Below, in pieces: positions 2,833-58,468 of a stretch of DNA of 64,000 nucleotides. The first letter of the stretch is position 1. Each line of letters begins with the position of its first letter. Below the pieces are notes generated by a model, which was given only the letters and a program-made list of their open reading frames with translations, did no database searches and was not told the origin of the DNA. Origin of the DNA: Malacoraja senta (Eukaryota). The position numbers and the translations under genes are program-made. The stretch covers positions 5,518,001 through 5,582,000 of the forward strand of contig CM075989.1 of NCBI GenBank assembly GCA_038087875.1, given 5' to 3'.

Positions 2833-2950
2833 TTTCAGTTTAGTTCAGTTTAGTTTAGAGATACAGAGCTGTAGATTGGCTGTAGATTGGCTACTTCAAA
2901 TTAGCCAATTATAGTGCTTGTTAGTAGTGACTCCGCCTCAACTCATTACA

Positions 2951-2995
2951 TGGTGTCAGAAGTGGGATACGAACTCACGCCTCCAGTTGGAGACC
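2951..2995 (+). promoter_or_regulatory. Primer-binding site complementary to the tRNA-Leu 3' end (extended)
   Basis: TGGTGTCAGAAGTGGGAT is the reverse complement of ATCCCACTTCTGACACCA of vertebrate tRNA-Leu(CAG/CAA), directly after the LTR CA end. Confidence 0.9.
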
Positions 2996-4028
2996 GCACC
3001 CAGTCCCTCCTCTCCCGTGGTCCACGTTAGCCACCAACATATTCGAATGGCATGGGAAACACTACCTGGTTCTTGTTGACTCTTACTCTTAATCATACTG
3101 GTTCGAAATTGATTTACTTCAAACCATTACTTCTGAAGCGGTTATCGCGAAGTTGCAGCGTCACCTCTCCGTGCACGGCTCCCCTGCACCTATTCTGTCC
3201 GACAAAGGCAGACAATTCACCAGCCAATCTTTCAAAAACTTTGCGAAACAATGGGACTTTCGACATATTCCCAGCAGCCCTGAGTTCCCACAGTCCAACG
3301 GACTCGCCGAATGCGCTGTCCGAAGCACAAAACAACTTACGGGGAGGTCCTACCTTGCAAAATCAGACGTATACCTGGACCTGCTTAACCTAAGGAACAT
3401 TGCACGGGATCCCATACTGGGTTCCCCAGCCCAACGACTGATGTCTCGCCAAACCTGTGCTCCCCTGCCTATGTCCAAGCAGCTTTTACAGCCGCAAGTT
3501 CGTTCCCCGCCTGCAGTCCAGAAACAATTACAATTCAAACGTGACACACAGACATGCTTCTTTGACAAATCCAGCAAGCCACTTAAATCTCTTGCACGTG
3601 GACAAGTGGTCCGTCTCCAGACCAACAAGGGCCATGCACGTCTGGGACACGTCCTCGGCCCTGCCAAAGAACCGCGCTCTTATCTGGTTGAAGTGGCCGG
3701 AGCCATCTACAGACGCAACCGTCAACATATCCTTCCGGTGAAGGAACCGCGTCATGCGACTCCATATCCAGATGTCTCGCGTTTCGTATACCCTCACCCG
3801 GTCGGTCCCGTGACCCCGCTGCCAACTAGCGTTTCCACCGCATCCTCCCCGCCGCGTTTGGCGACCAGCTCGCCTATCTCATCATCCTCCCTGCCTGTCG
3901 GGTCGCCGGTCGTTTCTCCAATTCCCTCCCCGGTATTTCCTCCGGTGAAAGGAGGTGAGGCGGATTCGTACCGCCCACGCGCCGGACGGGTTTGCAGGCC
4001 ACCCATTAGATACGGTGATTTTGTGTAA
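2994..4028 (+). pseudogene. Gypsy integrase core and C-terminal region (truncated pol, one in-frame stop at 3090)
   Basis: Frame reads PHPVPPLPWSTLATNIFEWHGKHYLVLVDSYS*..WFEI..HGSP..ILSDKGRQFTS..SSPEFPQSNGLAECAV..PRSYLVE..YRRNRQH..RPPIRYGD, typical DDE integrase motifs. Confidence 0.88.
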
Positions 4029-4318
4029 TTTTACAAACTTTCCCAATTGTGTTATTAACATTCCACCTATATTGCTTAGCCACCGATGATTCTTTTGTTT
4101 CTACAAGGATAGATGTAGATTGGCTACTTCATACTAGCCAATTATAGTGCTTGTTAGTAGTGACTCCACCAATTATGTGCTTTATATTATCAAGAGCTTG
4201 CCTACGCTAGTTAGTATGAGTAGCTGCTGGGAAATGTAATGTCCTATCGATCCTTGCTGTAAGTAGATTTAATAAACATGTGTTGTATCTTGATATGTGT
4301 TCGACTCAACTCATTACA

Positions 4319-4597
4319 CTGGCCCTTCGACCCACCGAATCCGCGCCGACCAGTGATCCCCACACACTAACACTATCCTACACACTAGGGACAATTTACA
4401 CTCATATCAAGCCAATAAACCTACAAACCTGTACGTCTTTGGAGTGTGGGAGGAAACCGAAGATCTCGGAGCAAACCCACACGGTCACAGGGAGAACATG
4501 CAAACTCCGTACCGACAGCACTCGTAGTCGGGATCGAAGCGGGGACTCCGGCGCTGCAAGTGCTGTAGGGCAGCAACTCTACCGCTGCGCCACCGTG
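4319..4597 (-). mobile_element. V-SINE (tail tip at 2837-2869, split by the Gypsy element)
   Basis: A/B boxes, V-domain, (CTAAA)n tail continuing on the far side of the LTR element. Confidence 0.88.
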
Positions 4598-28370: not shown

Positions 28371-31200
28371 TCAGTATCCCGTACCTGCCTTCTCTCCATA
28401 CCCCTTGATCCCTTTAGCCACAAGGGCCACATCTAACTCCCTCTTAAATATAGCCAATGAACTGGCCTCAACTACCGTCTGTGGCAGAGAGTTCCAGAGA
28501 TTCACCACTCTCTGTGTGAAAACTTTTTTTCTCATCTCGGTCTTAAAGGATTTCCACCTTATCCTTAAGCTGTGACCCCTTGTCCTGGACTTCCCCAACA
28601 TCGGGAACAATCTTCCTGCATCTAGCCTGTCCAACCCCATAAGAATTTTGTACGTTTCTATAAGATCCCCTCTCAATCTCCTAAATTCTAGCGAGTATAA
28701 GCCAAGTCTATCCAGTCTTTCTTCATATGAAAGTCCTGACATCCCATGAATCAGTCTGGTGAACCTTCTCTGCACTCCCTCTATGGCTATAATGTCCTTC
28801 CTCAGATTTGGAGACCAAAACTGTACGCAATACTCCAGGTGTGGTCTCACCAAGACCCTGTACAACTGCAGTAGAACCTCCCTGCTCCTATACTCAAATC
28901 CTTTTGCTATGAAAGCTAACATACCATTCGCTTTCTTCACTGCCTGCTGCACCTGCATGCCTACTTTCAATGACTGGTGTACCATGACACCCAGGTCTCG
29001 CTGCATCTCCCCTTTTCCTAATCGGCCACCATTTACATAATAGTCTACTTTCCTGTTTTTGCCACCAAAGTGGATAACCTCACATTTATCCACATTATAC
29101 TGCATCTGCGAAACATTTGCCCACTCACCCAGCCTATCCAAGTCACCTTGCAGTCTCCTAGCATCCTCCTCACAGCTAACACTGCCCCCCAGCTTAGTGT
29201 CATCCGCAAACTTGGAGATGTTGCCTTCAATTCCCTCATCCAGCTCATTAATATAAATTGTAAATAGCTGGGGTCCCAGCACTGAGCCTTGCGGTACCCC
29301 ACTAGTCACTGCCTGCCATTGTGAAAAGGACCCGTTTACTCCTACTCTTTGCTTCCTGTTTGCCAGCCAGGTCTCTATCCACATCAATACTGAACCCCCA
29401 ATACCGTGTGCTTTAAGTTTGGATACTAATCTCTTATGTGGGACCTTGTCAAAAGCCTTCTGAAAGTTCAGATACAACACATCCACTGGTTCTCCCCTAT
29501 CCACTCTACTAGCTACATCCTCGAAAAATTCTATAAGATTCGTCAGACATGATTTACCTTTCGTAAATCCATGCTGACTGTCCAATGATTTCACCACTTT
29601 CCAAAAGTGCTGCTTTCGCATCTTTAATAACTAACTCTAGCAGTTTCCCCACTACCGATGTTAGACTAACTGGTCTGTAATTCCCCATTTTCTCTCTCCC
29701 TCCCTCCTTAAAAAGTGGGGTTACGTTTGCTACCCTCCTATCCTCAGGAACTATTCCAGAATCTAAAGAGTTTTGAAAAATTATCACTAATGCATCCACT
29801 ATTTCTGGAGCTACTTCCTTAAGTACTCTGGGATGCAGCCTATCTGGCCCTGGTGATTTATCGGCCTTTAATCCATTCAATTTACCCAACACCACTTCCC
29901 GATTAACCTGGATTTCACTCAGTTCCTCTATCTCCTTTGACCCGTGGTCCCCTGCTATTTCCGGCAGATTATTTATGTCTTCCTTAGTGAAGACGGAACC
30001 AAAGTAGTTATTCAATTGGTCCGCCATATCCTTGTTCCCCATGATCAATTCACCTGTTTCTGACTGCAAGGGACCTACATTTGTTTTAACTAATCTCTTT
30101 CTCTTCACATATCTATAAAAACTTTTGCAGTCAGTTTTAATGTTCCCTGCCAGTTTTCTTTCATAATCTATTTTCCCTTTCCTAATTAAGCCCTTTGTCC
30201 TCCTCTGCTGGTCTCTGAATTTCTCCCAGTCCTCTGGTATGCTGCTTTTTCTGGCTAATTTGTACGCATCATCTATTGCTTTGATACCATCCCTGATTTC
30301 CCTTGTTATCCACGGATGCACTACCTTCCCTGATTTATTCTTTTGCCAAACTGGGATGAACAATTTTTGTAGTTCATCCATGCAGTCTTTAAATGCCTTC
30401 CATTGCATATCCACCGTCAACCCTTTTAGAACTAATTGCCAGTCAATCTTGGCCAATTCACGTCTCATACCCTCAAAGTTACCTTTCTTTAAGTTCAGAA
30501 CCGTTGTTTCTGAATTAACAATGTCACTCTCCATCCTAATGAAGAACTCAACCATATTATGGTCACTCTTGCCCAAGGGTGACCATAATATTGCCCAAGG
30601 GTGCACAACAAGGCTGCTAACTAACCCTTCCTCATTACTCAATACCCAGTCTAGAATAGCCTGCTCTCTCGTTGGTTCCTCTACATGTTGGTTTAGATAA
30701 CTATCCCGCATACATTCCAAGAAATCCTCTTCCTCAGCACCCCTGCCAATTTGATTCACCCAATCTATATGTAGATTGAAGTCACCCATTATAACTGTTT
30801 TGCCTTTGTTGCACGCATTTCTAATTTCCTGTTTGATGCCATCCCCAACTTCACTACTACTGCTAGGTGGCCTGTACACAACACCCACCAGCGTTTTCTG
30901 CCCCTTAGTGTTTCGCAGCTCTACCCATACCGATTACACATCCTTCAAGCTAATGTCCTTCCTTTCCACTGCGTTAATCTCCTCTCTAACCAGCAACGCT
31001 ACTCCACCACCTTTTCCTTTCTCTCTATCCCTCCTGAATATTGAATATACCTGGATGTTCAGCTCCCAGCCTTGGTCATCCTGGTGCCATGTCTCCGTGA
31101 TCCCGACTATATCATAATCATTAATAGCTATCTGCACGTTCAACTCATCCACCTTATTACGAATGCTCCTTGCATTGAGACACAAAGCCTTCAGGCTTGT
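28371..31200 (-). pseudogene. CR1 ORF2: AP endonuclease plus reverse transcriptase (three ORF pieces)
   Basis: LNARSIRNK, ITETW, GGGVAL, MGDFN, SDHN; KSPGPD, NYRPVSLTS, QHGF, FQKAFDKV, GVPQGSVLGP, FADD; disruptions near 30934 and 29600. Confidence 0.93.
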
Positions 31201-31502
31201 TTTTACAACGCTCTTACCCCTTATACAATTATGTTGAAAAGTGGCCCTTTTTGATTTTTGCCCTGGATTTGTCTGCCTGCCACTTTTACTTTTCACCTTG
31301 CTACCTATTGCTTCCGCCCGCATTTTATACCCCTCTGTTTCTCTGCTCACCCATTTAAGAACCCCACCACCTCTTATTCTCTGTTTATTATTGTTTTCTT
31401 CTTCCCCCCCTACATGTTGGGTCTGAGTGCTTTCCTTCTCTGCCTCCTGCCTCACACACTGTCTAATAGATTTCTCTATTTGAGTCCGTCCCCCCAACCA
31501 TT

Positions 31503-32418
31503 CTAGTTTAAAGTCTCCCCAGTAGCCTTTGCAGATTTCCCCGCCAGGATATCGGTCCCCCTCAGGTTCAAGTGCAACCCATCCTTTTTGTACAGGTCGC
31601 ACCTTCCACAAAAGAGGTCCCAATGATCCAGAAATTTGAATCCCTGCCCTCTGCACCAGTCCTTCAGCCACGCATTTATCCTCCACCTTGCTCCATTCCT
31701 ACTCTCACTGTCGCGTGGCACAGGCAGTAATCCCGAGATTGTTACCTTTGCTGTCCTACTCTTTAACTCCCCTCCTAACTCCCTAATTCTCCTTTCAGGA
31801 CCTCGTCTCTTTTTTTACCTATGTCATTGGTACCTATATGTACCATGACCTCGGGCTCCTCTCCCTCCCCTTTCAGGATATCTTGGACACATTGAGACAC
31901 ATCACAGACCCTGGCACCAGGGAGGCAAACTACCATCCGGGTCTCCCGACTGCGTCCACAGAATCGCCTGTCTGACCCCCTAACTATAGAGTCCCCTATT
32001 AGTATTGCCCTCCTCTTCTTTTCCTTACCCTTCTGAGCAACAGGACCGGTCTCTGTACCGGAGGCCCGGCCGCTGTCGCTACCCCCAGGTAGGCTGTCCT
32101 CCCCAACAGTGCTCAAACAGGAGTACTTATTGTCAAGGTGTACAGCCACCGGGGTACTCACTAGTCCCTGCCTGTGCCCCTTGCCTCTTCCAACCGTGAC
32201 CCACTTGCCTGCCTCCTGTGGTCTTGGAGTGACCACCTCCCTGTAACTCCTCTCAATGACTTCCTCGCTCTCCCTGACCAGACGGAGGTCATCGAGCTGC
32301 TGCTCCAGGTTCCTAATACGGTCCCTTAGGAGCCCCATCTCGATGCACCTGGCGCAGATGTGGACGTCTGGAGGGCTATCAGACTCCATGACTTCCCACA
32401 TCTGACATCCAGAACAGT
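31503..32418 (-). pseudogene. CR1 ORF1: CxxC-CxxC zinc finger, coiled coil and SGNH esterase (frameshifted)
   Basis: CSGCQMW..CARC, LEQQLDDL, GDSIVRG, PGA, HIGTND, DGLHLN. Confidence 0.9.
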
Positions 32419-54029: not shown

Positions 54030-54100
54030 TGCATCGACCGGGAATCGAACCCGGGCCTCCCACGTGGCAGGCGAGAATTCTACCACTGAACCACCGATGC
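54030..54100 (-). tRNA. tRNA-Gly-GCC: tRNA-Gly(GCC)
   Basis: GCATCGGTGGTTCAGTGGTAGAATTCTCGCCTGCCACGTGGGAGGCCCGGGTTCGATTCCCGGTCGATGCA: 71 nt, full cloverleaf, GCC anticodon, no encoded CCA, two extra G-T pairs. Confidence 0.92.
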
Positions 54101-57081: not shown

Positions 57082-58468
57082 TGTGTCATTCAAACAACAC
57101 CTGGAAGGTGCCAAGGCAAAGACAAGCGCCCGTGCCGCACTGATTCGCCGCCTAGCCGGCACCACATGGGGAGCCACGACAAAGTCACTGCGCATGTCCA
57201 CAGTGGCCCTGGTGTTCTCAGCCACCGAGTACTGCGCCCCGGTCTGGTGCCGTAGCCCTCACGCCAAGAAGCTGGATGCTGCCCTCAACAGCACCCTGCG
57301 GACTGTCTCCGGATGCCTACGAGCCACCCCAGTAAACCAACTACCCGTCCTCGCTGCCATCGCCCCAGCCAACATCAGACGAGAAGCAGCCACGCTGGCC
57401 CTCTCTCGAAAGGCACAGACCAGTGAATCCCACCTCCTCCATCAGATCGTCACAGAGACACCACGACGAGTGCGCCTCAAGTCATGGCACCCCTTTGCCA
57501 CACAAGCCCAAGAGCTGCTCTGCACAACACCGGCTGACGCTTCTAAGGCTGCCTGGGTCAAGACGAGATGGAGAGACCAGTGGAAGTCAGCGGAACCATC
57601 TAGGCTGCACCATTACATCGATGAACCCATGGACGTCCCTGGCCAGGGCCTGCCCCGAAAGCAGTGGACAACCCTCAACCGCTTGAGGACAGGCATCGGA
57701 CGCTATGGAGTAGCGATGAAGAGGTGGGGCCTCGTGGACAGCGAGTGCCTCCTGCGAGTGTGGGGACCCAACACAGACAGTGGAGCACATAGTCATTATA
57801 GAAGGACATTATAGCCATAGAGGGAGTGCAGAGAAGGTTCACCAGACTGATTCCTGGGATGTCAGGACTTTCATATGAAGAAAGACTGGATAGACTCGGC
57901 TTATACTCACTAGAATTTAGGAGATTGAGAGGGGATCTTATAGAAACTTACAAAATGCTTATGGGGTTGGACAGGCTAGATGCAGGAAGATTGTTCCCGA
58001 TGTTGGGGAAGTCCAGGACAAGGGGTCACAGCTTAACGATAAGGGGGAAATCCTTTCAGACCGAGATGAGAAAAAACATTTTCACACAGAGAGTGGTGAA
58101 TCTCTGGAACTCTCTGCCACAGAAGGTAGTTGAGGCCAGTTCATTGGCTATATTTAAGAGGGAGTTAGATGTGGCCCTTGTGGCTAAAGGGATCAGGGGG
58201 TATGGAGAGAAGGCAGGTACGGGATACTGAGTTGGATGATCAGCCATGATCATATTGAATGGCAGTGCAGGCTCGAAGGGCCGAATGGCCTACTCCTGCA
58301 CCTATTGTCTATGTATCTATGTATCTATAGTCACCAGTTGCCCCAAACACCGGCCACCGAATGGTGAACGAGGTCTTATTGACCTGGACGATGACACGTT
58401 GGCCTGGCTCGCCTCAACGGAGCTGCAGGTCTAAAAGACACACGACAGAAGAAGAAGAAGAAGAAGAA
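57082..58468 (+). mobile_element. Vingi/Ingi-type (I-group) LINE, 5'-truncated, with a nested CR1
   Basis: LAGTTWGA..ALVFSATEYCAPVW..LNRLRTG..CECG..H..CP; (GAA)n tail; 11-bp TSD GTGTCTTCTTT at 57071-57081 and 58469-58479. Confidence 0.8.
57797..58326 (+). mobile_element. Young CR1 3' fragment nested in the Vingi-type LINE
   Basis: Near-identical to 28272-28797; TSD ATAGTCA. Confidence 0.92.

Follow-up and report, generated by a model that had tools for sequence, protein, structure and literature searches.

Read-through copies of a modified tRNA-Leu primer as the probable origin of tRNA pieces in Gypsy elements of Malacoraja senta

The element and its tRNA-Leu piece

Why does a Gypsy element match its primer tRNA well beyond the primer binding site (PBS), and why is the first mismatch placed exactly opposite A58 of the tRNA? 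The question was raised by a preliminary description of the window, that is, the whole 64,000-nt stretch of Malacoraja senta DNA analysed here (contig CM075989.1, positions 5,518,001 to 5,582,000). According to this description, complementarity to tRNA-Leu runs on to about 45 nt, with A instead of T at base 19. Both statements are borne out. The PBS at 2951-2968 is followed by tRNA-complementary sequence at 2969-2995, where the match stops; the A at 2969 is seen directly, and all the intact Leu-CAA genes found have A58.

The piece belongs to a broken Gypsy LTR element with an internal deletion (2881-4318, forward strand, as are all its features). Alignment and blast showed that the 5' LTR (2881-2950, 70 nt, TG...CA) has lost about 135 nt internally relative to the 3' LTR (4114-4318, 205 nt, TG...CA), and the two are 95% identical over 57 nt. 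The 18-nt PBS, the complement of the tRNA-Leu 3' end with CCA, lies flush with the LTR end at 2950. By complementarity, the next 27 nt (2969-2995) are a copy of the T arm and the variable arm of tRNA-Leu(CAA), starting with the A opposite A58, a likely misincorporation at m1A58. At 2994-2995, two nucleotides are common to the tRNA and the integrase sequence. This junction corresponds to nt ~3137 after the PBS (~3.1 kb 3' of it) on a long family copy, L288; thus gag, protease, RT, RNase H, and the start of integrase are missing. Translation identified the rest of pol (2994-4028) as the integrase core and C-terminal part, broken, with an in-frame stop near 3090; the Pfam rve match to this remnant (E 4.5e-06) is under the curated cut-off. 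The left target-site copy (2876-2880) shares 4/5 bases with the right one (4319-4323, within a SINE copy) and forms the last part of an 11-nt segment duplicated from the LTR start (2870-2880), so that the target duplication is weak taken alone. At the integrase side, 29/29 other copies have a different sequence upstream of the junction, mostly the expected pol, with just 2 bases in common with the end of the tRNA piece.

The long copies of the family, L288 and L285, contain RVT_1, RT_RNaseH, Integrase_H2C2, and rve domains in Gypsy order. Family copies have 205-nt LTRs (TG...CA), the 18-nt Leu PBS, and 5-bp target duplications. There is no room for an env gene between the integrase end (4028) and the 3' LTR start (4114), and the long copies measure 4.2-4.4 kb internally. 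A homology search with the RT found relatives in fish, amphibians, corals, and molluscs (35-73% identity), some named K02A2.6-like or 17.6-like. Judged by domain order and RT homology, the element is classified as a Ty3/Gypsy LTR retrotransposon; a literature search on its clade, for which Mag was a lead, gave nothing.

Elsewhere in the window, ARAGORN and Rfam identified a tRNA-Gly(GCC) gene (54030-54100, reverse strand), and domain matches identified a broken LINE ORF2 (28371-31698, reverse strand) with endonuclease and RT domains over three frames. A stretch of ~530 nt at the end of this ORF2 has an inverted repeat copy at 57801-58328 (97% identity). Sixty or more direct-repeat families, dense and SINE-like, are spread across the window, and the element lies inside one SINE-like copy. 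The SINEs look like those of a cartilaginous fish.

The genome was found to contain three intact Leu-CAA genes (L122, L125, and L126), all with an intron, and six Leu-CAG genes; all nine carry A58. A genomic tRNA-Leu with T58, which would have made the A at 2969 a faithful copy, is thus absent among the genes found. L125 and L126 form a duplicated pair with A57 in place of G57, and L123 is a Leu-CAA fragment with the 5' part only. The 45-nt piece was compared with each of two gene types (L122 and L125, spliced by script) and matched both at 42/45 positions. In addition to 2969, there are two mismatches that had been missed earlier. The T for C at 2975, opposite G52, differs from every gene; the third is gene-dependent, at 2988 against L122 and at 2970 against L125. 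The same C-to-T change at extension position 25 is also seen in L096 and L041, making three copies of the window family with differing junctions. The window piece stops before the intron site. Rfam gave no match to it, as expected for half a tRNA.

Recurrence of the extension among Leu-primed copies

The preliminary description left two alternatives, that the extension is family-wide or private to this copy. Neither describes it. The extension recurs independently, with varied junctions, in about one third of the sampled Leu-primed copies. The exact LTR-end plus PBS sequence occurs at 1,269 sites genome-wide, all families included; among the first 100 of these sites (all on contig C1, unselected for extension), 36 carry an extension. 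This is a share of surviving copies and not a per-replication rate; scaled up, it suggests roughly 450 extended sites in the genome. For the window family, the exact sequence occurs 53 times, with an extension in 27/47 loci read (26/46 with a fold-back counted once), whereas the leader of the long copies is an ordinary one. With a stricter pattern that included the extension, 287 matches were obtained. The first 30 inspected, from many LTR families, all lay directly against an LTR end and included the CCA complement, and one of the 100 listed was a tRNA gene. Reversed-pattern controls gave 0 matches, as against 287 and 1,269; therefore, the extensions are not due to chance.

The pooled loci comprised 228 unique sites, of which 148 are extended; collapsing shared junctions left 144 events, with nearly all junctions distinct. 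Twelve tRNA-gene loci, L283 (no anchor found), exact duplicates, and four shared-junction copies were left out before this count. Extension lengths range from 27 to 87 nt, with differing junctions. ARAGORN, run with introns on the read-through loci, returned spurious long-intron calls only.

Some copies are arranged differently. L071 (G000:C18) has a 48-nt unit (LTR end, PBS, and 11 nt of tRNA) six times in tandem, with position 19 differing in the last. In the fold-back L044, two LTR-end plus PBS copies stand head to head with a short tRNA extension between them. The extension is joined back to the LTR end, and not to internal sequence, in L110, L114, L180, L346, and L357. At 12 of the 100 unselected sites (L129, L130, L133, L148, L149, L158, L159, L163, L179, L191, L194, and L195; at least four LTR families), the PBS end is joined to what reads by eye as one antisense stretch of the RT region. 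This would be a recurrent inversion hot spot, and might reflect pairing of strong-stop DNA with the sense strand. Many of the 64/100 sites that lack an extension run directly from nt 18 into internal pol; second-strand transfer thus seems to fail commonly even where no read-through took place.

A metagenome scan identified 34 contigs with the same LTR end, PBS, and extension, representing about 20 events; L313 and L315 are too short to score, and L312 and L318 are probably one event. At position 19, a base which the scan did not fix, the rows have T in 17 and A in 3. A tRNA-Gly primer pattern gave 0 matches, and the other Leu-CAG acceptor type gave 2, both without extension. The phenomenon is shown here for Leu primers only.

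Errors along the copied tRNA

Mismatches were scored with one rule for all positions, and positions fixed by a search pattern were left out of the per-position table. The mismatches are not random across copies. Position 19, opposite A58, is mismatched in 56/144 events (A30, C21, G5; in tRNA sense T30, G21, C5) and in 22/56 of the subset unselected for extension, against a background of 24/942 at other non-CpG positions and 14/215 at CpG positions. Position 36 faces the variable-loop C that immediately precedes the second strand of the stem; it is mismatched in 69/91 (A51, C11, T7). Position 50, opposite G37, is mismatched in 6/10, in copies mostly picked by a search pattern. At G26 and C34 no hot spot is visible (1/5 and 1/9, few copies). 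Within a copy, an error at position 19 does not significantly predict one at position 36 (odds ratio 2.4, p 0.14). L145 skips nt 19-20, the two bases at A58. The A58 mismatch is enriched, but the correct T is still commonest at position 19 (88/144), and two further hot spots exist that are unseen in the window copy, which has the correct base at its variable-loop site (2986).

The intron is absent from 10/10 scored copies that cross G37, although it is present in all three intact genes. Together with the CCA, this indicates that mature tRNA was the template. In L127 (G000:C4936), a complete spliced tRNA-Leu(CAA) with its CCA directly follows the LTR end, and A58, the loop C, and G37 were all copied correctly; this is likely a hypomodified primer copied end to end. 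Extensions tend to end at 47-51, either at G37 or immediately short of it (10/13 at risk; 26/31 in the larger set). A stop at the loop site was also considered but is not clearly supported. Ends at 35 account for 14/56, but the scoring pulls near ends there; in the larger set the hazard at 35-37 equals that at 38-46, so that the support does not exceed a scoring effect.

If the pieces arose by read-through, the position-19 hot spot almost certainly represents m1A58. Its low G fits the overall low C signal described for m1A followed by A in the accessible part of PMC4787781. The position-50 hot spot is probably m1G37, and m3C on the variable-loop C of Leu-CAA is a reasonably likely source of the position-36 hot spot. 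These names are likely ones, taken from the position and spectrum of the errors and not from chemistry. For the window copy, A in 30/144 events at position 19, against about 1%, would make about 96% of such A's copying errors, and the A at 2969 is on this reckoning very likely to be one.

The position-36 signal might have a genetic source even if read-through is true, namely Leu-CAA genes that encode T at the loop site but were not captured in the assembly. The gene set is incomplete: most copies imply a Leu-CAA with loop AAC and G57 which is absent among the genes found, and some imply a Leu-CAG type that is also missing, and some of the surplus of A might thus stem from a gene with T that escaped detection. 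The AAC-type loop is present in 46/62 copies, far above CpG decay, and most have G57, a combination carried by 0/3 intact genes; a single base, A, makes up 51/91 at position 36. The loop site itself is C in all genes found. A search with the 3' exon gave 20 matches and no further gene; 8/8 of the T-bearing matches were CCA-bearing, LTR-adjacent copies, whereas 3/3 genes had C. Moreover, each of the four bases is found with either loop background (A24 G16 C4 T2; A11 C3 T1 G1), and one CAG type likewise has the wrong base at position 36 in 3/3 scored copies; many unseen genes would be needed. In other animals' contigs from the metagenome scan, position 36 is uniform (T in 11/11 scorable rows); we infer that the tRNA of these hosts has A there, in which case they would serve as a negative control. 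Missing T genes are therefore considered an unlikely source of the signal, and m3C is retained as the candidate.

Junctions, origin, and comparison with known systems

The preliminary description had interpreted the locus as a genomic fossil of RT reading through a modified tRNA primer. This reading is strengthened by A58 in the genes and by the non-random mismatches, and a read-through origin of the tRNA pieces is highly probable. It has to be enlarged: a large deletion accompanies the read-through and belongs to the mechanism. Plus-strand synthesis is described as halting one base before m1A58, and over-long products as unable to pair at the PBS (PMC8599865, PMC13191261, in their accessible parts). 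RT may pass m1A58 on a hypomodified tRNA, leaving the correct T, or by misincorporation, and would stop further on, with G37 as a second stop suggested by the error patterns. The over-long strong-stop DNA, unable to anneal at the PBS, might then re-prime downstream on short or no homology. The double-LTR product could be integrated by integrase supplied in trans or by the parent particle. Where the jump lands in register, the leader would be rewritten and not deleted. Very probably, the window copy arose in this manner, by plus-strand read-through past m1A58 with misreading, followed by an aberrant second-strand transfer into its own template.

The junctions bear on how the join was made. On L288, 38 junctions were mapped; they are scattered from the LTR end to nt 4108, and 8/38 are antisense. 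A donor was found for 92/145 events, and wherever it was found the junction partner is the element's own sequence. Junction overlap averages 1.5 nt, while chance predicts 0.34 nt one-sided or ~0.7 nt counting both sides; yet 35/92 junctions are blunt, which complicates a template switch by RT as the maker of the join. The tRNA piece might instead have been copied by RT and the dead-end cDNA joined by host end-joining, as the blunt junctions, the inverted ones, and those rejoining the LTR end would allow. The overlap above chance and the restriction of donors to the element argue against this, and so does the in-register rejoining at the leader in L079, L100, L212, and L031. Fifteen read-through copies were fetched at length. 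In seven, the two LTRs are present (92-96% identical) together with a perfect 5-bp target duplication, and their LTR divergence fits the 2.5% background mismatch; of the other eight, in the stretch fetched, three have a damaged or partial LTR and five lack a second LTR. Intact LTRs and duplications in 7/15 also count against it. Host end-joining is judged unlikely as the maker of the joins, with template switching as a candidate.

It is very doubtful that the extension is an inherited long PBS of a master element, with 2969 changed by a later point mutation. In favour of this, one tRNA-derived leader is common to four copies of one other family (L080, L088, L134, and L263), and the window copy has its further mismatch at 2975. 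The upstream flanks of these four differ from L080 in three pairs checked, and L088 differs from L134; a common leader at different sites suggests that an extension can be inherited in a family other than the window's. Other leaders have weaker tRNA likeness (4/8 with shuffle p <= 0.04). Thus, read-through may at times be inherited and not fresh. For the window family, inheritance is opposed by the long copies without extension, by the upstream differences in the integrase-side copies, and by the variable lengths and scattered junctions; A at position 19 is also far more frequent than the roughly 1% expected for a given later substitution. Insertion or recombination, at the DNA level, of a tRNA gene or LINE-made tRNA pseudogene fragment can be practically dismissed: LINEs and tRNA-derived SINEs do abound in the window, but 30/30 inspected matches are flush on the LTR end with the CCA complement, anticodon-crossing copies are intronless, the hot spots fall at fixed tRNA positions, and the orientation relative to the LTR is constant.

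The read-through reading leads to a wider proposal. A fossil record of tRNA methylation is likely preserved in this genome. A fuller version has about an even chance of being right: in a Leu-primed animal Gypsy lineage, the m1A58 stop would be so leaky that read-through is a main route to dead copies and, where jumps are in register, rewrites the leader time and again, and several hundred copies would form a datable germline tRNA-seq record of m1A58, m1G37, and an unreported variable-loop m3C of Leu-CAA, readable from assemblies across species and time. If this is true, ordinary assemblies contain an in-vivo record of germline tRNA base methylation; as the copies can be dated by their own LTRs, the record would also tell when the bases were methylated. 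One prediction is m3C in the Leu-CAA variable loop in this animal. There is also an annotation hazard, because such pieces resemble tRNA pseudogenes and long PBSs.

Similar products and signals are known from other systems. In misincorporation mapping of tRNA (PMC4787781, PMC11417395, and PMC12140624, as far as their accessible parts go), errors also occur at m1A58, m3C, and m1G37, with mixed wrong bases. Here, in contrast, the copying enzyme belongs to the element, its errors are preserved in genomic DNA, and the loop signal is on Leu-CAA; the accessible part of PMC11417395 lists zebrafish variable-loop m3C for Leu-CAG and Ser, not Leu-CAA. For HIV-1 and MLV, the accessible parts of PMC8599865 and PMC13191261 describe a plus-strand strong stop set by m1A58, with lesser stops at 55, 54, and 37; as proposed for the skate copies, the normal stop is one base before A58 and a later one is at the modified base 37. 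The same sources describe lentiviral leaders with complementarity a few bases beyond the PBS. Over-long products are said in the accessible part of PMC8599865 to be unable to complete synthesis and integrate, and are rare in HIV-1 reservoirs, whereas here hundreds were apparently integrated. Integration in such bulk suggests that the modification state of the primer may limit the number of intact copies made.

Our literature search, which was partial and left most subscription journals and Repbase outside it, found no report of such tRNA pieces in retrotransposon copies, germline Gypsy elements included, nor of so high a frequency or of their use to record modification at several tRNA sites. 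In spleen necrosis virus vectors, Pulsinelli and Temin reportedly observed in 1991 large deletions from the PBS after faulty strong-stop termination. This was reportedly a single-round cell-culture vector, without a population of fixed germline copies.

The closest counterpart is HIV-1, in which deferred (aberrant) second-strand transfer yields defective proviruses (Hardy et al. 2025, PMC12657518, in its accessible part). That source describes 44 proviruses (1 of the authors' own and 43 from GenBank) whose deletion junctions contain 7-54 nt of tRNA-Lys3; position 58 is changed in 5/44. The LTR, the PBS, the primer tRNA at the deletion junction, and the read-through of m1A58 are alike in both systems. 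The window copy also compares with a deferred second-strand-transfer product in that the tRNA sequence follows directly after the PBS (42/45) and marks the join to downstream element sequence. The HIV-1 cases concern a somatic retrovirus, are rare, and involve tRNA-Lys3; the authors, in the accessible part of PMC12657518, regard the altered base 58 as a mutation and mention no further hot spots. In the skate genome, by contrast, the host of the products is a germline Gypsy element, they are present in 36/100 sampled copies from many LTR families, and there are three hot spots. Therefore, the class of product is already published for HIV-1; what is new, as far as the search went, is its occurrence in germline Gypsy elements, its frequency, and the probable three-site modification record.
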